A DNA stretch of 64,000 nt from a virus (Duplodnaviria > Heunggongvirae > Uroviricota > Caudoviricetes). Where the stretch lies: IMG/VR virus record IMGVR_UViG_3300022750_000190; one strand, given 5' to 3'. The notes under the pieces were generated by a model. The model was not told where the DNA came from. It ran no database searches and saw only the letters and a list, made by a program, of their open reading frames with translations. The position numbers and the translations under genes were made by a program. Positions 12,059 through 59,121 of the stretch are shown here, one piece after another (within the stretch, counting starts at the first letter, position 1; every line of letters starts with the position of its first letter).

Positions 12059-13423
12059 ATGCTGACGATTGTCGCCGCGTTTATGACTATCACTACTGTG
12101 ATGACCTACTTGAACTATAAGTTCTTCAAATTGCCCCATGCTATTGGCGTAATGCTTGGTGCTTTGGTAATGAGTTTGGCTATTCAAGCATTTAGTCGCC
12201 TTGGTTTTCCATTTATGGAAGAAGCTGTTATTGAGATTATTTCAAAAATTGATTTCCATGAACTGTTGATGGTTTGGATTCTTCCTGCACTTTTGTTTGC
12301 TGGCTGCTTGACCGTTAACGTAAGTGATTTGAAATCTCACAAATGGGCTATTGCAGGACTCGCAACATTTGGTGTGATTATTGCAACTGTTGTAATCGGT
12401 TTTTGTACTTATCAAGTTCTTGGGGCACTTGGTCTAAAAGTAAGCTTGCTTTATTGCTTACTCTTCGGTGCATTAATTAGCCCAACAGACCCAATTGCAG
12501 TTATGGGCATTCTTCGCAATGCAAGAGCACCAAAAAACCTTCAAGTTACTATTGTAGGCGAATCGTTATTTAACGATGGCACAGCAATCGTTGCGTTCTC
12601 TATCTTATTTGCTTTGGTTACATCTGGTGGCGAACCAACTTTCAGTCATGCTGGCATGTTGTTTCTGCAAGAGGCTGTTGGTGGTGTACTGTTCGGTTTG
12701 GCTCTTGGGCTTTTCACTGTTCTTATACTTAAAACAATTGATGAAGCACATATTACTGTAATGATTACTCTGGTGATGGTGGTAGGTGGTGCTACACTGG
12801 CAAGCCTTATGCATGTATCTGCACCATTGGCTATTGTAATTGCTGGTCTTTGCTTGGGATACACTCCTTTCAATCACATGAACGAGTATACTCAGCGTGT
12901 AGTTAACAGCTTCTGGCATATCATTGATGAATTTTTGAATGGCATGTTGTTTGCGCTTATTGGTTTGGAACTACTGATTGTAGACGTTAGCACCATCCAT
13001 TTTGTAATCGCTATTACAATGTTTGTAGTGTTGGTTGTAAGTCGTTTGCTGACTGTTATTCCACCACTTGCATTGATGAAGCGAATCCGAAAGGAAGCTG
13101 GCTTTGGTAAGGGTAGTGCTGCAATTCTTGCTTGGGGCGGTTTGCGTGGTGGTGTGTCTATTGCACTTGTTCTGGCATTGCCAGCAGGGCATGAGAAAGA
13201 CGTATTGCTTCCACTGACTTACATCATTGTTCTTGGCTCCATCTTGATTCAAGGCTTGACTGTTGGCAAGTTGGTTAACATCCTTTTTGAAAACACGCCA
13301 AAGGATACATTACCAGTAGATGGTCATGGCAACGTTAATACTGATGAATCAGAAGCCATTGCAGTACAAGTATGTGATGCGGCAGAAGCTCACACAATTG
13401 AAGAAAGCCATAAGAAAGACTGA
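12059..13423 (+). CDS. nhaP: CPA1-family Na+(K+)/H+ antiporter, NhaP-like
   Basis: About 12 TM helices; LFGALISPTDPIAV, GESLFNDG, WGGLRGGVSIALVL signatures. Confidence 0.95.
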   Translation: MLTIVAAFMTITTVMTYLNYKFFKLPHAIGVMLGALVMSLAIQAFSRLGFPFMEEAVIEIISKIDFHELLMVWILPALLFAGCLTVNVSDLKSHKWAIAGLATFGVIIATVVIGFCTYQVLGALGLKVSLLYCLLFGALISPTDPIAVMGILRNARAPKNLQVTIVGESLFNDGTAIVAFSILFALVTSGGEPTFSHAGMLFLQEAVGGVLFGLALGLFTVLILKTIDEAHITVMITLVMVVGGATLASLMHVSAPLAIVIAGLCLGYTPFNHMNEYTQRVVNSFWHIIDEFLNGMLFALIGLELLIVDVSTIHFVIAITMFVVLVVSRLLTVIPPLALMKRIRKEAGFGKGSAAILAWGGLRGGVSIALVLALPAGHEKDVLLPLTYIIVLGSILIQGLTVGKLVNILFENTPKDTLPVDGHGNVNTDESEAIAVQVCDAAEAHTIEESHKKD

Positions 13424-19274: not shown

Positions 19275-19350
19275 GGTTGTATAGCTCAGTTGGTAGAGCG
19301 TGCCCTTCATACGGGTAATGTCGTAGGTTCGATCCCTATTGCAACCACCA
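19275..19350 (+). tRNA. tRNA with CAT anticodon (elongator Met; Ile2 not excluded)
   Basis: 76 nt cloverleaf: GGTTGTA/TGCAACC acceptor, GCTC/GAGC D stem, TGCCC-TTCATAC-GGGTA anticodon arm, GTAGG-TTCGATC-CCTAT T arm, encoded CCA. Confidence 0.95.
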
Positions 19351-21327: not shown

Positions 21328-22164
21328 GTGAGTAATATTAAAGATTTTACAAAAGAAGATATTTTGAATAATGCTCTTTTGACTAGTCGCCCTGATGAAG
21401 AACCATATTACTATATGTATTCCATCGTTCGCGATGATATAGAAATGGATGAAGGAAAACGAATTTCGCAATCTGGACACGCTTTTACTGATTCGCTAGC
21501 ATCTGCAAAAGAATCTCATCCAGAAGCTCATGAAGGTTATCGTACTTGGGCTGCTAATAATTCACGCAATGGCGGTGCAAAAGTTGCGATGAAGTGTCGG
21601 AATGAATCCCAATTGATTATTGCATTTAATCTTGCAAGAAAGGCTGGTTTGCCATGTTCTATTGTTGTTGATAAAGGTCATATTATGCTACCTGATTTTG
21701 ATGGAAATCCTATTATTACAGCACTTGGTATTGGACCTTGTTCCAAAGAAGATGCCAAACATATTACTAAACGCTTTCAATGTATTCAAACGATTAAAGG
21801 AGCAGAAAAAAATAATATTCTAAATATTATTTCTAGTAATTCTAATATGAGTATTGGTAAAATTGTTGCTCAAAGATATCATGCATATTCAGGACTTGAC
21901 TTTTCTTTAATTCAGAATGAACCTGAACTTTATGAAAAACTAAAAAAAACAAAAATCACACAAGAACTGAAATTTTCTAGTAAACAAGATCTTTCAGACT
22001 TAATCCAATACATAACCAATAATGATCTCAATCATCATTTTGTTGCTGCCTCAACAGAGCTAGATGCTTTAGAAAATAATGGACCATTAACCGCAATTGC
22101 TATTGGACCTTGCACAAGTGAAGAAGCTCAATATATAAAAACTACTTTTAATTTGATATTTTAA
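21328..22164 (+). CDS. pth2: Peptidyl-tRNA hydrolase 2 (Pth2) family, two tandem domains
   Basis: Domain 1 GKRISQSGHA...KVAM...VVDKGH...TALGIGP; domain 2 GKIVAQRYHA...TAIAIGP. Confidence 0.8.
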   Translation: MSNIKDFTKEDILNNALLTSRPDEEPYYYMYSIVRDDIEMDEGKRISQSGHAFTDSLASAKESHPEAHEGYRTWAANNSRNGGAKVAMKCRNESQLIIAFNLARKAGLPCSIVVDKGHIMLPDFDGNPIITALGIGPCSKEDAKHITKRFQCIQTIKGAEKNNILNIISSNSNMSIGKIVAQRYHAYSGLDFSLIQNEPELYEKLKKTKITQELKFSSKQDLSDLIQYITNNDLNHHFVAASTELDALENNGPLTAIAIGPCTSEEAQYIKTTFNLIF

Positions 22165-22718: not shown

Positions 22719-22747
22719 AAAAAACGCTACCTAAGTAGCGTTTTTTA
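22717..22747. terminator. bidirectional terminator
   Basis: A-tract CGCTAC-CTAA-GTAGCG T-tract. Confidence 0.85.
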
Positions 22748-22757
22748 TTTATTTATT

Positions 22758-24722
22758 TTACTGTAATAAATTTACAGTAAAAGTTGATTCTTTACCTTCT
22801 TTTAAACCAGTACTTAATTCAGAATATCTTACTACAACCTGATTGTTAGAATTCAATTCTGCACTTTCCAATACCTTAGTCTTATAGTTTGATGCTGTTA
22901 TTCCTCCATTACCAATATACTTATCTAATCCTTTCGGAACAGTAATCATTGGATCTTGCCCTGTTGCATTCTTAAATGCATTTACTGTTTTAATAACATT
23001 GGCTTTATTATATTTTCCTGTACTCAAATCATCTACGATTAAATGTAGTTTATAAGATTGAGTTTTATCTATTGTAGACTTATCTAATGAATTAATAAAA
23101 GTTTCTAAATCAGTTTTTGTTGATAATGAACTTGTTTTAATTGTATTGTTCGCTAATAATCCTTTAACTGTTGTAGTGTTTGAAACACTTGCAGAATCAT
23201 CCGTGCTTGAACCAGTAGATACACAATTATTACTTGATTCTATAAATTCAGTTCCACGAGGATATGTTTTAACTCCTTTTGAATCTGTTGCTACATATCT
23301 GTATGATGTTACTGTTCCTGTATATCCTGATGGACATGCTTTAGTGCTTGTTTCAGTAGTTACATCACTTACAGTAGATTTACATGTACTGTTATATGTA
23401 GCTGGTGTATTTGATACGAATGAAGTTGTTGTTTGTTTAGTTGTACTACTATATGTATATACTCTAGTACCACTTTCTGTCACTTCTCCTGTATAATCGC
23501 TTGCTGAACCACCATAAACTCCTGCACAAGTTAATAATCTTGTTCCCGGTTCTTTTGTAACTTGGTCTGGAACATTAGTGCAAGTATTACTAATTTCTAC
23601 TGATGTCCAAGGTGTTGCGTTTTGCTCATTTAAAATAGCGATTTCAGCAGGAGTCTTAACAGAGTTTGCACTATATTCTTTATGCGTTCTACGTCCTTCC
23701 ATTACTCTGTAACCAGTTTGTCCTTCCCCACATGTCGTTCTTGGATCAACTCTTGTATCTGCAACAGTTTTATAACACGTAGTACCTGTGCCAATGTTTG
23801 ACCAAGCTGACCATGCTCTAGGACCATCTGACCATATTTGTCTTGTTCTAGTTTGATTTTGACCTGTACCACCCTCTGAATAAGGAGCCGGACATGCCAC
23901 TAATTGAGTCTGTGTTTCGTTTGATTGGAAAACAGATTTACATGTGTTACCTATTGTAGACCAACCAGTATAGTTAAATCTTTGACCACCATACGAATAT
24001 ACGGTTGTAGTATAAAACTCAAATGTTCTACTTTGTGTAATTACACCATCTGGCATTGTAGATGGACAAGCAACTGTTTGTGTTTCAGAACCTCTAACTG
24101 CACAATAGTCATTTACGTTATACCAAGCTGTTTGATTTCTCCATGTATTATCAGACCATAATTGATACTGGTAAGCATTTGTAAATGTACCTGATGAGGT
24201 AATTCTTCCCTGTCCATCAACTGGGGCACACGTATATTGTTGATAAAATGTTTGGGTACTTCTATATACTGCTACACAATAATCAGCTACGTTATACCAA
24301 CCTCCAAAATTACGAGTAGAACCATCAGACCACACTTCATAAGTTCTTCTTTGTAAGATATATCCACTTGGTCTGTCTGCTGGACAACCTACAGCATTAT
24401 CTTGAGTCGTCGTATAGCTATAAGTTGGTCCTGCTGGCGCAGAACAAACTTCATAATAGTCTACTATAACGTTTTTACCTACGTTACCTTCGCCTCTTTT
24501 GGCTCCTACTGTATATATATTTCCTCCATATGAAACACTACCACCTCTACCTGCTGCTACTCCTGCATATCCGCCATTTAAGGTTAAAGTATAATTGTTT
24601 ACACCTTGTGAGTTGTTGCTAAATAAAGTATTTCCTTTGCTATACGTACAAGCAGCGTAAGCTTGACCAAATACGCTCATCAATAGCAGAGAAAATAAAA
24701 TTCTTAATGTATTTTTTTTCAT
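22758..24722 (-). CDS. exported modular Cys-repeat protein, copy A (7 stalk modules)
   Basis: Signal peptide ending AYA; 16 Cys in pairs; WSDG repeats; conserved C-terminal domain. Confidence 0.9.
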   Translation of the reverse strand: MKKNTLRILFSLLLMSVFGQAYAACTYSKGNTLFSNNSQGVNNYTLTLNGGYAGVAAGRGGSVSYGGNIYTVGAKRGEGNVGKNVIVDYYEVCSAPAGPTYSYTTTQDNAVGCPADRPSGYILQRRTYEVWSDGSTRNFGGWYNVADYCVAVYRSTQTFYQQYTCAPVDGQGRITSSGTFTNAYQYQLWSDNTWRNQTAWYNVNDYCAVRGSETQTVACPSTMPDGVITQSRTFEFYTTTVYSYGGQRFNYTGWSTIGNTCKSVFQSNETQTQLVACPAPYSEGGTGQNQTRTRQIWSDGPRAWSAWSNIGTGTTCYKTVADTRVDPRTTCGEGQTGYRVMEGRRTHKEYSANSVKTPAEIAILNEQNATPWTSVEISNTCTNVPDQVTKEPGTRLLTCAGVYGGSASDYTGEVTESGTRVYTYSSTTKQTTTSFVSNTPATYNSTCKSTVSDVTTETSTKACPSGYTGTVTSYRYVATDSKGVKTYPRGTEFIESSNNCVSTGSSTDDSASVSNTTTVKGLLANNTIKTSSLSTKTDLETFINSLDKSTIDKTQSYKLHLIVDDLSTGKYNKANVIKTVNAFKNATGQDPMITVPKGLDKYIGNGGITASNYKTKVLESAELNSNNQVVVRYSELSTGLKEGKESTFTVNLLQ

Positions 24723-24960
24723 TTTTTATTATTTTTATAATTAAATAAAGATTAACATTAAAATTTTTTTGAAAATTGCTATTCGTCAGAAAGTTATAAA
24801 CCCTATATATTATCATATTTGAAAAACAATTGCAAGAACACTTATAATATATGACTAATTTTTATGATTTAGTTAACATATTAATGACATAAAAAAAATA
24901 AAAACAAATGTCAAAAAAAATTCCCACTAGTTATATTTATTAACAAATATGAATATTAAT

Positions 24961-24988
24961 AAAAAAACGCCACCTAAGTAGCGCTTTT
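24961..24988 (-). terminator. terminator of copy B
   Basis: CGCCAC-CTAA-GTAGCG, near-copy of the 22717 hairpin, A-tract on + strand. Confidence 0.7.
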
Positions 24989-25000
24989 AAATAATTGAAT

Positions 25001-26623
25001 TTACTTCAATAAATCAACAGTAAAGGTAGAGTCTTCACTTTCTTTTAAACCTGTTGTTAATTCTGAATACTTAACTACCACTTGATTATTAGAATTTACA
25101 ACAGCGCTTTCTAATACTTTATTTTTATAGTTGTCAGCAGTTATTCCACCGTTACCAATATATTTATCCAAACTTCTTGGAACAGTAATTATTGGATCTT
25201 GTCCTGTTACACCCTTAAAGGCATTTACTGTTTTAACTACGTTTGCTTTATTATATTTCCCTGTGCTTAAATCATCAACTATTAAATATAATTTATATGA
25301 ACTATTAGTATCTATTGTTGTTTTATCAAGTGCATTAATAAACGCTTCCATATCAGTTTTTGTTGATAATGAACTTGTTTTAATTGTGTTATTTGCTAAT
25401 AATCCTTTTGATGTTTGAGAATTTGACACAGTTCCTGAATCATCATTACTTGCTCCAGTAGACACACATGTATTGTTTGATTCTATAAAGTCTGGACCAT
25501 TTGGATAAGTTTTAACTCCTTTAGTATCTGTTGCTACATATCTATACGATGTAATTGTTCCTGTATATCCTGTTGGACATGCTTTTGTACTATTTTCAGT
25601 TGTTACATCACTTACTGTAGATTTACATGTACTGTTATAACTTGGTGGTGTATTAGATACGAATGAAGTTGTTGTTTGTTTAGTTATACTACTATATGTA
25701 TAAACTTTTGTTCCTGTCTCTACCACTTCTCCTGTATAATCACTAGCAGATCCACCATAAATACTGGCACAAGTTAACAATCTAGTTCCCGGTTCAGTTG
25801 TAACTTTATCTGCAACATTTACGCAAGTATTTGCCACTTCAACTTCTGTCCATACTGTTGCGTTTTGCTCGTTTAAAGTTGCAATTTCTGCTGGAGTTTT
25901 ACCACTATTAGCACTATATTCTTTGTGAGTTCTTCTCCATTCCGTAATTCTATATCCAGTTTGACCTTCTCCACATGTTTTTCTGGAATTATCTTTTACA
26001 TCAGAGACTGTTTTATAGCAAGTGTTTGAAACAGTAGCCCAAGCTGACCATCCTCTTGCTCCATCTGACCAAATTTGCCTTGAACTAGTTTGTGTTATTC
26101 CATTACCACCTTCAGCATATGGTGCTACACAGGCTATTGCTTGTGAACGACCTTCTGTTGATTGATAAACAGCAACACATGTATTAGAAGTCGTTACCCA
26201 ATTAGAATAATTTTTTATAGAACCATCAGACCAAACTTCATAACTTTGTCTTAAATTTATAACTCCACTTGGCTGTGTTGCTGGACATGCTGATGTCGTA
26301 TAGTTATACCCTGTATAACTATAAGTTGGACCTGCTGGTCTGGAACAAACCTCATAATAATCTACTATAACGTTTTTACCTACGTTGCCCTCACCTCTTT
26401 TAGCTCCTACTGTATAAATATTTCCGCCATATGAAACGCTTCCCCCTTTTCCATTAGCAGAACCTACGTTTGCTCCATTTAGCCTTAAGCTAAAAGTATT
26501 CACGCCTTGAGAGTTATTAACAAACAAAGTGTTTCCAGCACTATATGTACAAGCTGCATAAGCTTGTCCAAATACACTCATCAATAACAGAGAGAATAAA
26601 ATTTTTAATGTATGTTTTTTCAT
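25001..26623 (-). CDS. exported modular Cys-repeat protein, copy B (5 stalk modules)
   Basis: Signal peptide and tip nearly identical to copy A; shortest stalk. Confidence 0.9.
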   Translation of the reverse strand: MKKHTLKILFSLLLMSVFGQAYAACTYSAGNTLFVNNSQGVNTFSLRLNGANVGSANGKGGSVSYGGNIYTVGAKRGEGNVGKNVIVDYYEVCSRPAGPTYSYTGYNYTTSACPATQPSGVINLRQSYEVWSDGSIKNYSNWVTTSNTCVAVYQSTEGRSQAIACVAPYAEGGNGITQTSSRQIWSDGARGWSAWATVSNTCYKTVSDVKDNSRKTCGEGQTGYRITEWRRTHKEYSANSGKTPAEIATLNEQNATVWTEVEVANTCVNVADKVTTEPGTRLLTCASIYGGSASDYTGEVVETGTKVYTYSSITKQTTTSFVSNTPPSYNSTCKSTVSDVTTENSTKACPTGYTGTITSYRYVATDTKGVKTYPNGPDFIESNNTCVSTGASNDDSGTVSNSQTSKGLLANNTIKTSSLSTKTDMEAFINALDKTTIDTNSSYKLYLIVDDLSTGKYNKANVVKTVNAFKGVTGQDPIITVPRSLDKYIGNGGITADNYKNKVLESAVVNSNNQVVVKYSELTTGLKESEDSTFTVDLLK

Positions 26624-26790
26624 TTTTTTTGTTTTAATTATTATTTATCAATTATAACCTTATAATTTTATTACATCTGTAATAAAACAAAAAAACAATA
26701 AAATTCTATTATAATAACATATTTTTTCTCTTTCAATAAAACAAAAGAGAAAAATTTTCTCCGACAAAATAAAAAATTTATAACAAAAAT

Positions 26791-26816
26791 AAAAAACACC
26801 CTTTTCAGAGTGTTTT
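26791..26816 (-). terminator. terminator of copy C
   Basis: AAAACAC...GTGTTTT hairpin. Confidence 0.6.
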
Positions 26817-26831
26817 CTAAATACGATTATT

Positions 26832-29015
26832 TTATTTTAAAAGCTCAATTATGAAACTTGATTCTTTTCCTTTTTTCAATCCTGTTGTCAATTCAGAGTA
26901 AGTTACCACTACTTGATTACTTGCATTAACTTCTGCACTTTCTAATACTTTATTTTTATAGTTTGATGCTGTTATTCCACTATTACCAATATATTTATCT
27001 AAACTTTTTGGAACAGTAATTATTGGATCTTGTCCTGTTATACTTTTAAAGGCATTTACTGTTTTAACTACATTAGCTTTGTTATATTTTCCTGTGCTTA
27101 AATCATCAACTATTAAATGTAATTTATATGATTGAGATTTATCAACAGTAGATTTATCTAATGAATTAATAAAAGTTTCTAAATCAGTTTTTGTTGAAAG
27201 AGAACTTGTTTTAATTGTATTATTAGCTAACAATCCTTTTGATTTAACTGCACTTGATATTAATCCTGAATCGTCTAAGCTTGCACCAGTAGATACACAT
27301 GTATTATTGGACTCTATGAAGTTAGTTCCATTAGGATAAGTTTTAATTCCTTTTGCATCAGTTGCAACATATCGGTAAGAAGTAACTATTCCTGTATATC
27401 CTGATGGACATGCTTTTGTACTAGTTTCAGTTGTTACATCACTTACAGTAGACTTACATGTACTGTTATAAGTTGGTGGAACATTTGACTTAAATGTAGT
27501 AGTTGTTTGCTTTGTTGCACTACTATAGGTGTAAACTTTAGTACCAGATTCTATAACTTCTCCTGAATAACTACTTGGCTGTCCACCATAAACCGCAGCA
27601 CATGTTAATAGTCTAGTTGCAGGTTCGGTTGTCACTTTGTCTGGAACATTAACACATGTATTAGCTACTTCAACTTCTGTCCATACTGTTGCATTTTGCT
27701 CATTTAAAGTAGCTATTTCAGCTGCAGTTTTTCCTGAATTTGCACTGTATTCTTTGTGTGTTCTTCTCCACTCAGTAATTCTATATCCTGTTTGACCTTC
27801 TCCACACGTTTTACGACTATTGTCTTTTACATCAGGTACTGTTCTGTAACAAGTACTTGAAACAGTTGCCCAATTAGACCATGCTCTTGGTCCATCTGAC
27901 CATATTTGTCTTGAACTTGTTTGATTTATACCATTACCACCCTCAGCATATGGTGCAAAACATGCTATTGATTGTGAACGGTTTTCTGTTGATTGATAAA
28001 CAGCAGCACAAGTATTTCCTGTTGTTGTCCAGTTAGTGTAGTTGAATCTCTGACCACCATAGGAATAAGCAGTAGTCGTGTAATATTCAAATGTTCTGCT
28101 TTGTGTTATTGTTCCACTTGGCAATGTAGCTGGGCATGCTACATTTTGACTTTCAGAACCTCTAACTGCACAATAGTCATTAACATTATAATAGTTACCA
28201 TAATTACGTATAGAACCATCAGACCAGACTTCATAAGTTCTATTATGAGTATATGTACCAGATGATGTTATTCTTCCTTGTGCATCTGTTGGCGCACATT
28301 GAAAAACTGTACTTTGTGTTTCAGTTCTATTATATACTGCAGAACAATAATCAGCTACGTTATACCATCCACCAAAATTCCTTGTTGAGCCATCAGACCA
28401 CACTTCATAAGTTCTTCTTTGTAAGATATATCCACTTGGTCTGTCTGCTGGACAACTTGCAGCTTGATCTTGTGTCGCCGTATAACTCGCAACAGCAGAA
28501 CAATAATCAGCTACATTATACCATCCACCAAAATTACGAGCAGATCCGTCAGACCATACTTCATAAGTTCTTCTTTGTAATATGTAACCACTTGGCCTAT
28601 CCGCTGGACATCCTGCAGCTTGATCTTGTGTTGTAGAGTAACTATAAGTTGGCCCAACATCTGCATAGCAGACATTATAAACAACATTCGAACCAGAACC
28701 ATTTTTACCATTACCGTGAGATACAGCAATTACAACCGGACCTTTATAATAAGTCCTTCCGCCATAGTTAAAAGTAGAAATAGCTCCACCACGAGTTCCA
28801 TATACAATTTGATTATTTAATGTAATTGTAACAGCATTATTTGATGCATCCCAAATCCACCAACCATTGTTATAGGATGGTGTAGTAGTATATGGCAAAC
28901 ATGTTTCTGCTTTAACGTTGTTAGCAAAAATTAAAATAAACAATAATAATGATATTTTCAGGATAGTAAATCTGTTGATATTATTCAAAAATATTTGAAT
29001 GAAATTTTGTTGCAT
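26832..29015 (-). CDS. exported modular Cys-repeat protein, copy C (8 stalk modules)
   Basis: Signal peptide ending VKA; distinct tip; duplicated CPADRPSG module. Confidence 0.9.
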   Translation of the reverse strand: MQQNFIQIFLNNINRFTILKISLLLFILIFANNVKAETCLPYTTTPSYNNGWWIWDASNNAVTITLNNQIVYGTRGGAISTFNYGGRTYYKGPVVIAVSHGNGKNGSGSNVVYNVCYADVGPTYSYSTTQDQAAGCPADRPSGYILQRRTYEVWSDGSARNFGGWYNVADYCSAVASYTATQDQAASCPADRPSGYILQRRTYEVWSDGSTRNFGGWYNVADYCSAVYNRTETQSTVFQCAPTDAQGRITSSGTYTHNRTYEVWSDGSIRNYGNYYNVNDYCAVRGSESQNVACPATLPSGTITQSRTFEYYTTTAYSYGGQRFNYTNWTTTGNTCAAVYQSTENRSQSIACFAPYAEGGNGINQTSSRQIWSDGPRAWSNWATVSSTCYRTVPDVKDNSRKTCGEGQTGYRITEWRRTHKEYSANSGKTAAEIATLNEQNATVWTEVEVANTCVNVPDKVTTEPATRLLTCAAVYGGQPSSYSGEVIESGTKVYTYSSATKQTTTTFKSNVPPTYNSTCKSTVSDVTTETSTKACPSGYTGIVTSYRYVATDAKGIKTYPNGTNFIESNNTCVSTGASLDDSGLISSAVKSKGLLANNTIKTSSLSTKTDLETFINSLDKSTVDKSQSYKLHLIVDDLSTGKYNKANVVKTVNAFKSITGQDPIITVPKSLDKYIGNSGITASNYKNKVLESAEVNASNQVVVTYSELTTGLKKGKESSFIIELLK

Positions 29016-29237
29016 TTATTTCTCATTTGTGTTTAAAAAAATACTAACATTACAACTTTATGTCAAAATAGTTAGCAAGCTAATCATTAATTAAAGTAAC
29101 TTTTTTTAAGCCTTTATTTGTATGCATATTATGCATATAATATTTTTTTATTTATTTTTATTTTTTTTATTAGAGCAAATGCACTATATTAAAAAAAAGC
29201 CACTTTTTAATAGTGACCTTTAATTTAATTATTTATA

Positions 29238-31037
29238 TCAAAATAAATTTATAGTAAAAGTTGATGTAGCTCCTTCCTTGATTCCTGTTGTTAATTCTGA
29301 ATATTTAACAATAATTTGATTGTTTGAATTAACAATAGCACTTTTAAAAACTTTGTTTTTATAGTTTGAAGCTGTTATTCCTCCATTGCCTATATATTTA
29401 TCCAAACTTTGTGGGACAGTAATTATTGGATCTTGTCCTGTTACTGATTTGAAAGCAGCAACTGTTTTTGTAACGTTAGCTTTATTGTATTTCCCTGTAC
29501 TTAAATCATCAACTATTAAATGTAATTTATATGTATTTGAATAATCAATTGTAGATTTATCAAGTGTTTTAATGAATGTTTCTAAATCTGTATTTGTATT
29601 TAAAGAACTTGTTTTTATTGTGTTATTCGCCAATAATCCTTTTGATTTGACTGTACTTGATATTAATCCTGAATCATCTAAACTTGCACCAGTTGATACA
29701 CATGTATTATTTGATTCTATAAAATCTGCTCCATTAGGATATGTTTTAACTCCCTTAGAATCTGTTGCAACATATCTATAAGATGTTATTGTTCCTGTAT
29801 ATCCTGATGGACATGCTTTAGTGCTTGTTTCAGTAGTTACATCACTTACAGTAGATTTGCATGTACTATTATAAGTTGGCGGAATGTTTGATTTAAATGT
29901 AGTAGTCGTTTGCTTCGATACACTACTATATGTATATACTTTAGTGCCAGTTTCTGTTACTTCGCCAGTATAATCACTTGTTTGACCGCCATAAACACTC
30001 GCGCATGTTAACAATCTTGTTCCGGGTTCGGTTGTTACTTTATCCGGTACATTTGTACATGTATTTGCCACCTCTACCTCAGTCCATGCAGTTGCATTTT
30101 TTTCATTTTCTATAGCTAATTGGGCAGGAGTTAAATTTGATTGAGATATGTATTCTACATGAGTTCTTCTCCATTCAGTAACTCTATATCCTGTTTGACC
30201 TTCACCACATGTTTTACGACTATTATCCTTCACATCTGAAACAGTTTTAGAACATGCGAATTCTACTGTGGTCCATGCTGACCATGCTCTTGGACCATCA
30301 GACCATATCTGCCTTGTCCCTGTCTGTTTTAATCCTGCACCATTTGGATAAGTTGAAGGACATGCAACTGTTTGGGAACGGCTTTCTGTTGTTTGATAAA
30401 CCGCAGCACAAGTATTTGAAGTTACATACCAAGCTGAATAATTCTGAACTGAACCATCTGAAAACACTTGATAACTTTGAGCCATATTAATTACACCACT
30501 TGGCTGGGTAGCTGGACAAGCAGAAGTGGTATAATTATATCCTGTATAACTATAAACAGCAGAACAGTAATCAGCTACGTTATACCATGCTCCAAAGTTA
30601 CGAGCAGAACCATCCGTCCATACTTCATATGTTCTTCTTTGCAAAATATAACCACTAGGACGAGTTGCAGGACAGCCAGCAGCTTGATCTTGAGTAGTTG
30701 TATAACTGAAAGCAACAGCAGGAGTAACTGTACAAACTTCATATTCATAACGCTCATTTGAACAGTTTTTTCCTCCTAAACATCCTTTATCCCTGTAAGC
30801 ACCAACACCATACGTTTGACCATTATAAACAATAGTTCCATTAGCCCCCTGCATTGTTCCTATGAATTTACCAAGCCACAAACTATAGGTTTCCGAACCT
30901 ACTGCACCAACTACTTTAGTAAAAGCATATGCATAAACTCCATTTCTAGTAACCGAAGTATACACACAATTTGCATACGCATTAGACATTGTTAATAACG
31001 AAAACATTATTATTAATTTTTTTAATATTCTGACCAT
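29238..31037 (-). CDS. exported modular Cys-repeat protein, copy D (6 stalk modules)
   Basis: Signal peptide ending AYA; tip has an extra Cys pair (CLGGKNC). Confidence 0.9.
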   Translation of the reverse strand: MVRILKKLIIMFSLLTMSNAYANCVYTSVTRNGVYAYAFTKVVGAVGSETYSLWLGKFIGTMQGANGTIVYNGQTYGVGAYRDKGCLGGKNCSNERYEYEVCTVTPAVAFSYTTTQDQAAGCPATRPSGYILQRRTYEVWTDGSARNFGAWYNVADYCSAVYSYTGYNYTTSACPATQPSGVINMAQSYQVFSDGSVQNYSAWYVTSNTCAAVYQTTESRSQTVACPSTYPNGAGLKQTGTRQIWSDGPRAWSAWTTVEFACSKTVSDVKDNSRKTCGEGQTGYRVTEWRRTHVEYISQSNLTPAQLAIENEKNATAWTEVEVANTCTNVPDKVTTEPGTRLLTCASVYGGQTSDYTGEVTETGTKVYTYSSVSKQTTTTFKSNIPPTYNSTCKSTVSDVTTETSTKACPSGYTGTITSYRYVATDSKGVKTYPNGADFIESNNTCVSTGASLDDSGLISSTVKSKGLLANNTIKTSSLNTNTDLETFIKTLDKSTIDYSNTYKLHLIVDDLSTGKYNKANVTKTVAAFKSVTGQDPIITVPQSLDKYIGNGGITASNYKNKVFKSAIVNSNNQIIVKYSELTTGIKEGATSTFTINLF

Positions 31038-31345
31038 TTTTTTCTTTTCTTATTTATATAAAAAAATATAACATTAAAAAAAGCAAAATAAATAAATAGA
31101 AATCCTCTGTAAGCTTTGATTCATAAGGGTTTGACAGTTTTATAACTTTGGAATTTTACGCCTGATTTTTAAGAAATAAAAATCAAAATATCCAAATGAA
31201 TATATCCAAAAATAGATATAATCTATTTTTTTTGAAAAAACTCATTTATCAAAAATATTCAAACAGATACTTTTAAAAAACAACAAATATCAAAAATATT
31301 TATATTTTTCTCCTTAAATATAAATAAAAAAAATAAAAAATAAAT

Positions 31346-31375
31346 AAAAAAAACCACCATATCAATGGTGGCTTT
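31346..31375 (-). terminator. terminator of copy E
   Basis: A-tract CCACCAT-ATCA-ATGGTGG. Confidence 0.75.
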
Positions 31376-31389
31376 CCTAAACTCTTTAT

Positions 31390-33186
31390 TTATTTAAGTA
31401 AGTCAACAGTAAATGATGAACTTGCGCCCTCTTTTATACCAGTAGTCAATTCAGAATAAGTGACCTTCACTTGGTTGTTACCATTTAACACTGCACTTTC
31501 AAACACTTTGTTTTTGTAATTAGAGGCTGTAATCCCACCATTACCTATATATTTATCTAAGCTTTGTGGAACAGTGATTATAGGATCTTGTCCTGTTACG
31601 CCTTTAAATGCATTAACTGTTTTTACTACGTTTGCTTTGTTATACTTTCCTGTACTTAAATCATCAACTATCAAATACAATTTATATGTTTCACCAGTAG
31701 ACACTGTTGATTTGTCTAAAGTTTTAATGAATGTATCTAAATCTGTTTTTGTACTCAATGAACTCGTTTTTATTGTGTTATTAGCCAATAATCCTTTTGA
31801 TTTGGCAGTACTTGCAACTATGTTTGAATCATCTATGCTGGCACCAGTAGATACACATGTATTACTTGCTTCTATAAAGTCAGTTCCATTAGGATAAGTT
31901 TTAACTCCTTTAGCATCTGTTGCAACATATCTGTAAGAAGTAATTGTTCCTGAATATCCTGTTGGACACGCTTTTGTACTAGTTTCAGTTGTTACATCAC
32001 TTCTTGATGACTTACATGTACTGCTATAAGTTGGTGGAACATTCGACTTAAATGTAGTTGTTGTTTGCTTAGTTGCACTACTATAAGTATATACTGTTGT
32101 TCCACTTTCAACTACTTCTCCTGTATAGTCACTTGCTTGTCCACCATAAACACTCGCACAAGTTAACAATCTTGTTCCCGGAGTAGTAGTAACTTTATCT
32201 GGCACATTAACACAAGTATTAGCCACTTCAACTTCTGTCCAAACAGTTGCATATTGTTCGTTTAATGCTGCAATTTCTGCCGGTGTTTTACCACTATTCG
32301 CACTATATTCTTTGTGTGTTCTTCTCCATTCAGTAATTCTGTACCCTGTTTGACCTTCGCCACATGTTTTTCTAGAATTATCTTTTACGTCAGATACTGT
32401 TTTATAACAAGTACTTGAAACAGTTGCCCATGCAGACCAAGCTTTTGCTCCATCAGACCATATTTGTCTTGAACTTGTTTGAGTTATTCCATTACCACCC
32501 TCAGCATATGGTGCAAAACATGCTATCGTTTGTGAACGCCCCTCTGTTGATTGATAAACAGCTACACAAGTATTAGATGTTACATACCATGCAGAATAAT
32601 TTCTCACAGAACCGTCTGTAAATACTTGATAGCTTTGAGCCATATTTATTATTCCACTAGGCTGTGTTGCTGGACAAGCAGAAGTTGTATAATTATAACC
32701 TGTGTAACTTGCTACCGCTGTACAATAATCTGCTACATTATACCATCCGCCAAAGTTTCTTGTAGAACCATCAGACCAAACTTCATACGTTCTTCTTTGA
32801 AGAATATATCCACTTGGTCTGTCTGCTGGGCAACCAGCAGCTTGATCTTGTGTTGTTGTATAGCTATAAGTTGGTCCTGCTGGCGCAACAGTACAAGCTT
32901 CATATTCCCAACGCTCACTAGTACCATTTTTACCTAAACTTATTTTATCTCTATATGCACCACGAGCATAAGTTACTCCATTATAAGTTATGGTTCCAGT
33001 AGCGCTACTTATTGTCCCTATATAAGTTCCTAAATATAAACTGTAACTTCCGGTAGGTCCGCCGCCTTCAAAACCATAGGCATAAACGCCGTTTCTTTGA
33101 AAAGATGTCCATACACAATCGGCACTCGCAATTGAAGTTATTCCCATTAATATCATAAGGGATAAAATTGATAATATTTTTTTCAT
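31390..33186 (-). CDS. exported modular Cys-repeat protein, copy E (6 stalk modules)
   Basis: Likely start ATG 33186 (MKKILSIL...IASA signal peptide); tip related to copy D. Confidence 0.9.
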   Translation of the reverse strand: MKKILSILSLMILMGITSIASADCVWTSFQRNGVYAYGFEGGGPTGSYSLYLGTYIGTISSATGTITYNGVTYARGAYRDKISLGKNGTSERWEYEACTVAPAGPTYSYTTTQDQAAGCPADRPSGYILQRRTYEVWSDGSTRNFGGWYNVADYCTAVASYTGYNYTTSACPATQPSGIINMAQSYQVFTDGSVRNYSAWYVTSNTCVAVYQSTEGRSQTIACFAPYAEGGNGITQTSSRQIWSDGAKAWSAWATVSSTCYKTVSDVKDNSRKTCGEGQTGYRITEWRRTHKEYSANSGKTPAEIAALNEQYATVWTEVEVANTCVNVPDKVTTTPGTRLLTCASVYGGQASDYTGEVVESGTTVYTYSSATKQTTTTFKSNVPPTYSSTCKSSRSDVTTETSTKACPTGYSGTITSYRYVATDAKGVKTYPNGTDFIEASNTCVSTGASIDDSNIVASTAKSKGLLANNTIKTSSLSTKTDLDTFIKTLDKSTVSTGETYKLYLIVDDLSTGKYNKANVVKTVNAFKGVTGQDPIITVPQSLDKYIGNGGITASNYKNKVFESAVLNGNNQVKVTYSELTTGIKEGASSSFTVDLLK

Positions 33187-33491
33187 TTTTATTTTTATTC
33201 TGGTGTGATACTCAAATAATAACACTTGTTTTTATTTTCATATGCACTCAAATGATGATAGTTTATAAAATGGCACATAAGCCCTACAACTCCAGCTTTT
33301 AAAGGGTATACACGCCATATTCAACTGGATTGTTTTGAAAATTTTTCTATAATTTTACTTTCGTAACACAACCCATTTGAATACATTTTTACAACCTTAA
33401 AAATATATTTCTTATATACAACTTTTTACTTAAAATTTATAAAAAAATAGATTATATGATACGATAATTTAAAATTAAATAGGAAATAACA

Positions 33492-58035: not shown

Positions 58036-59121
58036 TTGTCAAAACGACATAAGGTGAGTATTGTGCAACAATATGCTTTGAGCGGAAAACGGGTTAAAGA
58101 AATAATCTCCGTTTTGAGACAATCCCTTCCTAAATCTGTAATTTATATTTCAGATCTAGAAGCCAATACCAGAATCGAAAACGTCAATTTTTGCGAAATC
58201 ACTGGACTTGCTTTTGATTGCGTCAAAGATATGTTTTTTGTTCCTGTCGATCCCTTTTCTGAATCTCGGATTATTAACGTTTACAATATTGCAGTAGTTT
58301 GCAAAGATGCTTATAGCTTTTATAAAAAAATCTATCAATATATTCTGGATAATCCTGATTTCCCAAATATTGAAGATTACAAGAAAAGTCATCTTCGTTT
58401 TCAACTAACAAAAGAAAATATTCTTTCTGATTATCCAGAAAAAGAAAGAATTGAAATTTTAGATTACTCTTTTCTATTTGATAATATAGGGCAAAAAAGC
58501 CGCAAGGAACGAATCAAAGACGCTCTTGCAATAGCTCTTGATTCACCTGTTATTAATAACTTACAGCCCCTGAAACCAAAGAACCCTATTAACCGCAATG
58601 TACCTGCTCTTAATGCTAAACCAAAGAAATCCAAAACAACAGATGAACTTTACAGCGAAAGAACAATTAAAAGACGCATCAGGGATTTTAATGACCGTTC
58701 TAACGCCAAAGGCTTAACATGCAACATGACCTTTGAAAATTCAAAACATCTTTTTTCATTCAAATATTGCCAATTAACTGGCATGAAACTTGATCGAAAC
58801 AAGAATTCAAAACATGCTTTGCCTAATTCTTTTACGATTGACAGGCTCAATCGTTTTGAAGGTTACACCGTAGCTAATACTATTGTTATGTGCTATGAAG
58901 CAAACCAGATTAAATCAGATTTGGAACGCCATAATTACACTGAAAACTTGTCTCAACTCATTAGAATTCTTGATGAAACAAAACGACGAGTTCTTAATAA
59001 ATACAAAGACAACTCAGAATATAAATTTAAAACATCAAAATTGAAAGCACCTTCTGATCTTGTAGGAAGCTACAAAGATAAGAAAAAGAAACAACTTGAA
59101 AATAGATTTCATATAGCTTGA
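58036..59121 (+). CDS. protein with C-terminal His-Me finger / T4 Srd-like domain
   Basis: KRRI...AKGL..NMT...CQLTG...TIDRLN..EGY...NT...C..AN..K. Confidence 0.55.
   Translation: MSKRHKVSIVQQYALSGKRVKEIISVLRQSLPKSVIYISDLEANTRIENVNFCEITGLAFDCVKDMFFVPVDPFSESRIINVYNIAVVCKDAYSFYKKIYQYILDNPDFPNIEDYKKSHLRFQLTKENILSDYPEKERIEILDYSFLFDNIGQKSRKERIKDALAIALDSPVINNLQPLKPKNPINRNVPALNAKPKKSKTTDELYSERTIKRRIRDFNDRSNAKGLTCNMTFENSKHLFSFKYCQLTGMKLDRNKNSKHALPNSFTIDRLNRFEGYTVANTIVMCYEANQIKSDLERHNYTENLSQLIRILDETKRRVLNKYKDNSEYKFKTSKLKAPSDLVGSYKDKKKKQLENRFHIA

Follow-up and report, generated by a model that had tools for sequence, protein, structure and literature searches.

The 64,000-nucleotide stretch analysed here (the window), part of IMG/VR virus record IMGVR_UViG_3300022750_000190 (Caudoviricetes), carries a tandem array of five minus-strand open reading frames (ORFs), paralogs A to E, within positions 22758-33186. 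The array encodes proteins of 540-727 aa, and nearly all genes flanking it are on the other strand. From the N- to the C-terminus, each product can be divided into a predicted signal peptide, a variable tip, a stalk of Cys-containing modules, and a conserved foot, the C-terminal domain (C-domain). An earlier note, made from the letters of the DNA, had proposed that these are five tandem paralogs encoding exported, modular binders, and the ORFs were found at the positions it gave, with the lengths listed in Table 1. For paralog E, the ORF list runs to a GTG at 33225. The ATG at 33186 is preferred because it yields the signal peptide MKKILSILSLMILMGITSIASA/DC (the slash marks the predicted cleavage site).

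Judged by sequence, all five products qualify as putative Sec-exported disulfide proteins, with an n/h/c-type signal peptide, an even number of Cys, and no transmembrane segment. Each signal peptide has a K/R-rich start, a hydrophobic core of 10-12 residues (mean Kyte-Doolittle hydropathy of the core 2.1-2.9 in the five copies), and an AxA-type site, consistent with the Sec signal peptide proposed earlier for every copy. Cleavage is predicted at AYA/AC, AYA/NC, ASA/DC, or VKA/ETC. Neither a lipobox nor a later transmembrane or hydrophobic segment was seen in the five paralogs. The Cys counts are even throughout (A 16, B 12, C 18, D 16, E 14), and the Cys spacing alternates between long gaps of 36-50 residues and short gaps of 12-20. 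The long gaps delimit two-Cys modules of the form C-P-x-x-x-P-S-G...W-S-D-G...W...C. The Cys spacing bears out the stalk of five to eight such modules per copy that the earlier note had described, including the exact module order. The distal modules R1-R4 differ between copies in presence and number, and the four proximal modules (37/50/48/37 spacing) are found in every copy. All Cys are probably paired, so that each module would hold one disulfide and another would close the tip.

The tip comprises 70-80 aa. Its first mature Cys, at +2/+3, matches by position the Cys that closes the tip end, and this positional pairing suggests that the tip is a closed unit held by a predicted disulfide. A GKN motif is invariant across the tips, which fall into three classes in the array: I (A and B), II (D and E), and III (C). 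Tips of differing class share only 26-39% identity, as expected of the variable N-terminal domain described earlier. The last 153-154 residues are Cys-free and 78-85% identical among copies, and they correspond to the conserved C-terminal domain of about 150 aa in the same description.

Table 1. Features of the array and their positions in the window.
Feature	Position	Strand	Description
Paralog A	22758..24722	-	654 aa; signal peptide 1-23, type I tip 24-93, 7 two-Cys modules, C-domain 501-654
Paralog B	25001..26623	-	540 aa; signal peptide 1-23, type I tip, 5 modules, C-domain 387-540; copy used for structure prediction
Paralog C	26832..29015	-	727 aa; 36-aa signal peptide, type III tip 37-116, 8 modules (first two near-identical), C-domain 574-727
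Paralog D	29238..31037	-	599 aa; type II tip with additional Cys pair, 6 modules, C-domain 447-599
Paralog E	31390..33186	-	598 aa from ATG at 33186; type II tip, 6 modules, C-domain 445-598
Tip domain, A	24444..24653	-	
Tip domain, B	26345..26554	-	
Tip domain, C	28668..28907	-	
Tip domain, D	30732..30971	-	
Tip domain, E	32893..33120	-	
C-domain, A	22761..23222	-	
C-domain, B	25004..25465	-	
C-domain, C	26835..27296	-	
C-domain, D	29241..29699	-	
C-domain, E	31393..31854	-	
Terminator after A	22719..22746	-	12-bp stem and T-run, bidirectional
Terminator after B	24963..24988	-	intrinsic
Terminator after C	26790..26819	-	intrinsic
Terminator after D	29195..29221	-	intrinsic
Terminator after E	31347..31378	-	intrinsic, 14-bp stem
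Candidate sigma-70-like site TTGAAA-17-TATAAT	26708..26736	-	85 nt upstream of B start
Candidate sigma-70-like site TTGACA-17-TATTTT	29038..29066	-	23 nt upstream of C start

The AlphaFold2 model of B, built from a 32-sequence alignment, is all-beta to residue 386 and continues as an alpha/beta domain, with a mean predicted local distance difference test score (pLDDT) of 77.7. Its predicted template modelling score (pTM) of 0.29 is low, as expected for an elongated multi-domain chain. Folded alone, the C-domain is again alpha/beta (pLDDT 87.3, pTM 0.77). The structure predictions suggested in the earlier note produced models of B and of the C-domain, and the comparisons with PDB entries yielded no known fold: Foldseek returned nothing at E<=0.001 for the whole B model or the C-domain, and the best Z scores from VIA-align over PDB representatives were 4.7 and 4.3, respectively. 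In the AlphaFold DB, the B model matches uncharacterised relatives only; a 174-aa entry with the name 'Lipoprotein' is an additional match of the C-domain. A single BFVD row had an E of 3e-4, with a template modelling (TM) score of 0.07, and no Atlas shape search reached TM 0.45. Six G5 or G5-E entries (IgA1 protease, SasG, two of Aap, RpfB, and HP0197) could be aligned with module residues 97-150 at weak Z scores of 3.8-4.5, too low to tell a shared fold from chance, and the G5 profile (PF07501) has no Pfam match in the paralogs. In the model, the modules may therefore weakly resemble G5 in shape, which is not family membership. The C-domain is a confidently predicted fold with no solved or Atlas counterpart.

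Comparison of the copies indicates that they are functional genes keeping distinct tips and not decaying duplicates. By the Nei-Gojobori method, the ratio of nonsynonymous to synonymous substitution rates (dN/dS) among array copies is 0.12-0.28 for the stalk and 0.06-0.20 for the C-domain. Within tip classes it is 0.09 for A versus B and 0.30 for D versus E; between classes dS is saturated. The stalk and C-domain are under purifying selection, and the tips are constrained within their classes too. The genes are also mosaic. In its tip, A is nearest to B (~90% nucleotide identity); its first module is closest to that of E (89%), the next one to that of C (89%), and the part near the base to that of D (93%). 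The nearest copy therefore changes along the gene, which points to recombination or gene conversion between copies.

The 604,209-bp contig to which the window belongs (ERZ27228643 k141_1005676) has two more paralogs some 36 kb past the array, just outside the window end, at about 68.8-72.0 kb (P0014 and P0180; L012:8365-9837 and L012:10001-11617), again on the strand opposite to their neighbours. P0014 (538 aa) has a tip type of its own. P0180 (490 aa) combines a type III tip like that of C with the common base and foot, and a Pro-rich linker (PPPPPPVTPSDPGGGYTPPP...) replaces its distal stalk modules. Tip, spacer, and foot are thus separable units, since P0180 keeps the tip and foot but exchanges the spacer. 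A related contig (L014) carries a syntenic array with tip classes III, III, and I, which ends beside the same 139-aa and peptidyl-tRNA hydrolase (Pth2) genes, and one further contig carries tip classes III and II.

Each of the five genes is followed by a strong intrinsic terminator of its own, 12-17 nt past the stop codon. Terminator-like sites in the array region number 11, compared with 4.2 +/- 2.1 in shuffles. A Shine-Dalgarno (SD) motif is absent from the A/T-rich 25 nt upstream of each array start and is present in 29 of 54 other genes of the window. The A/T-only leaders without an SD motif span 24723-25000, 26624-26831, 29016-29237, 31038-31389, and 33187-33491. Such leaders suggest a different mode or timing of translation initiation for the array. 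Taken together, the genes' own terminators, the opposite strand, the A/T-rich leaders lacking an SD motif, and the candidate promoters lead us to read the array genes as autonomous moron-type cassettes. Two hallmarks of morons, an own terminator and an orientation independent of the neighbours, are found in all five genes.

The earlier note had named a match to a well-characterised family as grounds for giving up its proposal. None was found in Pfam, PHROGs, NCBIfam, or PADLOC, where no paralog scored above threshold, or among PDB sequences, where a profile search gave no match. A word-based search with the C-domain alone was also negative, as were megablast and tblastn searches of 50,697 phage records; an IMG/VR pattern scan found no relative. 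The Pfam scan of 30 C-domains produced scattered chance matches only, and a sub-threshold PHROG match of the paralogs is a 22-residue fragment. An exhaustive HMMER search over 1.84 billion cluster representatives returned 160 clusters at E<=0.001, 73 of them at E<=1e-30. The family is real but rare, undescribed, and new. A signal-peptide-like N-terminus is present in 51 of the 64 full-length relatives, and the Cys count is even in 56. Variants of 900-1243 aa place the proximal modules and C-domain behind other N-terminal regions. In other variants, the tip and modules stand at the head of Big_9/cadherin adhesin-like proteins. One of these, P0075 (1158 aa; L009:254-5607), shares the signal peptide, tip, and Cys modules and continues with Big_9/cadherin repeats; its gene is directly after those for TrbI (VirB10-like) and TraV. 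P0075 is therefore a candidate conjugation adhesin by its sequence and gene context. The adhesin-like character attributed to the array in the earlier note is supported by this sharing of modules.

Several known classes of exported or phage protein were considered for the array and dropped. A lipoprotein was dropped because no lipobox is present, and an autotransporter or outer-membrane barrel because the C-domain is alpha/beta. A type IX secretion system C-terminal sorting domain does not fit the presence of the cellular relatives in Pseudomonas. The size and copy number are wrong for a spanin, and the gene content of the chromosomal islands that carry relatives (see below) does not fit inovirus g3p.

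One sub-threshold Pfam match was to the Cys-rich fungal effector NIP_1 (E 0.004, 17.8 bits versus a cut-off of 25). This raises an explanation in which the products are secreted lectin- or effector-like proteins that act on a plant, fungus, or protist of the leaf litter and not on bacterial envelopes. The source of the window is a leaf-litter metagenome, and cellular relatives occur in plant-associated Pseudomonas, both of which would suit such a role. However, the NIP_1 match lies under the gathering score and spans only one module, the proteins have no enzymatic or toxin domain, and a lytic phage would gain little from effectors directed at eukaryotes. We regard this explanation as highly improbable.

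Members of the family were found on huge-phage-like contigs and, in a few Pseudomonas species, in integrase islands of low GC, and nowhere else. Full-length members, single or in tandem pairs, are present on contigs of 314, 252, and 250 kb that carry huge-phage accessory genes, namely NAD+ ligase, NAD kinase, MoxR/VWA, a tRNA-synthetase fragment, and NADAR. The C-domain profile matches 5 of 301 sampled Pseudomonas species genomes, often with two copies, and none of 400 other genomes sampled from the class. In the Pseudomonas chromosomes, the loci are islands of low GC. Across its full length, one copy from a phage contig shares 67% identity with a P. syringae protein, and B is 60% identical to a Pseudomonas sp. 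protein. Such gene flow with Pseudomonas points to Pseudomonas or a close relative as the host, and the 604,209-bp contig is probably from a huge Pseudomonas phage.

Other genes of the window are of separate interest. A complete Na+/H+ exchanger gene at 12059-13423 (+; Pfam Na_H_Exchanger, E 1.8e-60) is unusual phage cargo. Two stretches of a 278-aa protein (21328-22164, +) match the archaeal/eukaryotic-type peptidyl-tRNA hydrolase Pth2 (E 1.8e-29), and its gene adjoins a tRNA-Met gene at 19275-19350. The C-terminal half of a 361-aa protein (58036-59121, +) is HNH/endonuclease VII-like, and the PHROG matches of this protein include the 'decoy of host sigma70' and 'Srd anti-sigma factor' families. 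In a Pseudomonas sp. island (L004:11479-14089), three tandem N6-methyltransferase-like paralogs, UmuC, and DUF6988 lie beside a single gene of the array family.

A recurrent island of about 20 kb and 35-45% GC carries a family member in three independent instances (L001:29-19783; L007/L008; L023). It encodes a DUF6538 tyrosine integrase, small helix-turn-helix regulators, a weak RepB-primase-like gene, and one or two of the modular proteins. Also encoded are two polytopic membrane proteins with signal peptides, about 850 and 925 aa long, and the L007 and L008 islands additionally carry an MPTase-PolyVal protein. For the two membrane proteins, an Atlas language-model search gave weak leads to DotA/TraY (0.83) and TraG_N (0.79), where scores below 0.9 count as leads only. 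These associations bear on the possibility that the array proteins are contact or mating-pair-type adhesins serving DNA transfer. As functional analogues of TraN, they would hold the producing cell to a neighbour via the neighbour's outer-membrane proteins. In the islands they would work with the two membrane proteins, and the phage would have captured the adhesin part.

The repeated linkage of a family member to the same membrane proteins and integrase favours this view, as does the position of the P0075 gene, with its tip and modules, right after TrbI and TraV. TraN itself joins a conserved, disulfide-rich core to a variable tip, by which recipient outer-membrane proteins are selected (PMC9246713). 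However, the likeness to TraN that the earlier note had drawn was not found in sequence: there is no Pfam match to TraN at E<=1, and a comparison of the 32-sequence family profile with F-plasmid TraN by hhalign gives a probability of 0.4%, on which homology to TraN was rejected. The likeness to PilV, named in the same place, is not supported either. The N-termini are predicted Sec signal peptides with AxA sites and not prepilin leaders, and neither a PilS (PF08805) nor a Shufflon_N (PF04917) domain was detected; a PilS-containing Atlas cluster at TM 0.20 is a lead only. The membrane-protein scores are likewise leads, and BLASTP of the 928-aa island protein against F TraG found no match. Homologs of the membrane proteins are also absent from the window and from loci L002, L003, L010, and L012.

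Further evidence against a role in transfer comes from plasmids and from the phage itself. A tblastn search of 72,556 plasmids (PLSDB) recovered the modules in only two Pseudomonas records, with cadherin-like genes, and no IncI plasmids. No tra or type IV secretion system (T4SS) family was found among the window ORFs scanned. As to the survey of array sizes and of pilus or T4SS neighbours that the earlier note had recommended, arrays or pairs are present on related contigs, and T4SS genes (TrbI and TraV) are found beside P0075 only. Finally, it is not obvious what a lytic giant phage would gain from mating contacts. A role in DNA transfer is distinctly unlikely for the array.

The islands also bear on whether the proteins belong to the virion. 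They might be unprocessed structural fibres, or they might be oxidised in the periplasm and join released particles via the C-domain at lysis as extra receptor-binding adaptors. The tip/stalk/foot layout, the several tip classes, and the mosaic recombination are typical of phage receptor-binding proteins, and seven copies represent a large coding investment. However, the virion fibres of tailed phages are assembled in the cytoplasm, where signal peptides and obligatory disulfides are a misfit. The doubt raised in the earlier note that the products are virion fibres built in the cytoplasm is supported. The relatives function from chromosomal islands showing no recognisable virion genes, and each array gene stands alone as a cassette, apart from any structural module. 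Nor did PHROGs or the 50,697 phage records yield a match, and the tail-fibre rows in BFVD were non-significant. A virion role of either kind is very unlikely. A cell-autonomous envelope function is more probable because the chromosomal relatives work without virions and the genes are isolated cassettes.

The explanation we favour, to which we give an even chance, is that the array is a set of self-contained moron-type cassettes making the host export rod-like binders of differing reach and specificity. The Sec signal peptide would carry each chain to the periplasm, where every Cys would be paired. The five to eight flat beta modules would then stack as a stiff stalk, presumably ~20-30 nm long if judged from the dimensions of SasG. 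The conserved C-domain would dock the rod on a conserved envelope partner, and the distal tip would bind a target, with three tip classes in the array and at least one more elsewhere on the contig. Tip variation multiplied by stalk-length variation would produce a panel of specificities and reaches, a design principle also seen in Periscope proteins and in TraN. The presence of full-length relatives in Pseudomonas chromosomal integrase islands, which implies function without a virion, counts in favour of this explanation.

The purpose of such rods can be proposed only tentatively. They might mask or plug envelope entry structures used by rival phages or conjugative elements and so provide superinfection or entry exclusion during a long infection cycle, a possible but doubtful role. 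Cell-surface adhesion or cell-cell contact ranks second and seems unlikely.

Several observations weigh against the export of rod-like binders from moron-type cassettes. Of the five genes, only B and C have good sigma-70-like sites upstream, and in this AT-rich DNA promoter-like sites are no commoner than in shuffles. No outer-membrane route is recognisable in the proteins, which have no barrel, lipobox, or known secretion tag; the rods could therefore be located in the periplasm, at the surface, or in the medium after lysis. Nothing connects the family with an exclusion phenotype, and PADLOC gave no match. The likeness of the modules to G5 is below Z 5, and we infer an anchor role for a C-domain that has no known fold. 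The phage identity of the contig rests on the style of its gene content, with no structural gene within the window.

A bolder proposal extends the favoured explanation. Huge phages may reprogram the host envelope with a combinatorial panel (tip class by stalk length) of a new class of disulfide-stapled rods that acts as a multi-target shield, each tip plugging a different entry structure, at the surface or in the periplasm, on which rival phages or conjugative elements depend. On Pseudomonas islands, the same rods and the two DotA/TraG-like membrane proteins would form a new contact or exclusion module. We consider this proposal rather unlikely. In an even more unusual variant, rods oxidised in the periplasm would arm released virions at lysis.

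Few phage proteins are made for export, and the known ones are mostly small. Here, about 13 kb of one genome is given over to seven or more large exported paralogs, whose family has no database description. The family is notable for a foot domain without an assigned fold and for tip classes that stay distinct from one related phage to the next. Should the rods mask receptors or mediate contact, giant phages would have in them a new means of controlling the host surface in long infections, and the rods would also be a new source of modular, disulfide-stable binding scaffolds. The link with a recurrent Pseudomonas island suggests an undescribed envelope system common to phages and mobile islands.

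Among known systems, the array can be compared with phage morons and exclusion lipoproteins such as lambda Lom and Bor and T5 Llp. These are also autonomous cassettes with their own terminator whose exported products alter the host envelope and do not build virions. The known examples are small single proteins of known families, whereas here the paralogs number at least seven, are large and modular, and belong to an undescribed family. HxsA is a periplasmic anti-phage effector that blocks incoming phage DNA and thus provides a precedent for an exported protein acting in the periplasm against phage DNA entry (PMC13128918). However, HxsA is unrelated in sequence, is host-encoded, needs radical-SAM maturation enzymes, and has a peptidoglycan-binding domain and HxS repeats.

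Closer in layout are the Periscope proteins, in which an N-terminal binder is carried on a rod whose length sets its reach (SasG, Aap, Rib, and Sgo_0707; PMC8201768). They share with the array proteins a layout in which an N-terminal binding domain precedes a rod, built from a variable number of small beta domains in tandem, and a C-terminal attachment region. The array copies have 5, 6, 6, 7, and 8 tandem modules behind the N-terminal tip, in a stalk whose rod shape is predicted. However, there is no sequence relation between the two groups, and each array module is stapled by a predicted disulfide. Periscope proteins have an LPXTG anchor in Gram-positive hosts, whereas the array proteins lack LPXTG, have the 154-aa alpha/beta C-domain instead, and have Gram-negative relatives. 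In Periscope proteins, length varies between alleles; in the phage-encoded array, it varies between paralogs of one genome.

TraN (PF06986) resembles the array proteins in being Sec-exported, beta-rich, and about 600 aa long, with all Cys predicted to be intramolecularly bonded and a conserved core joined to a variable tip (PMC9246713). However, TraN has at least 20 conserved Cys and an internal tip (PMC9246713), whereas the array proteins have 12-18 Cys in a regular two-Cys repeat and an N-terminal tip. Among the ORFs scanned, the array window is also without T4SS genes, and only the module-sharing P0075 is T4SS-linked. TraN is a good functional analogy, and membership of its family is not supported. 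Considered alongside Periscope proteins and TraN, the array represents a known design principle built from new parts.

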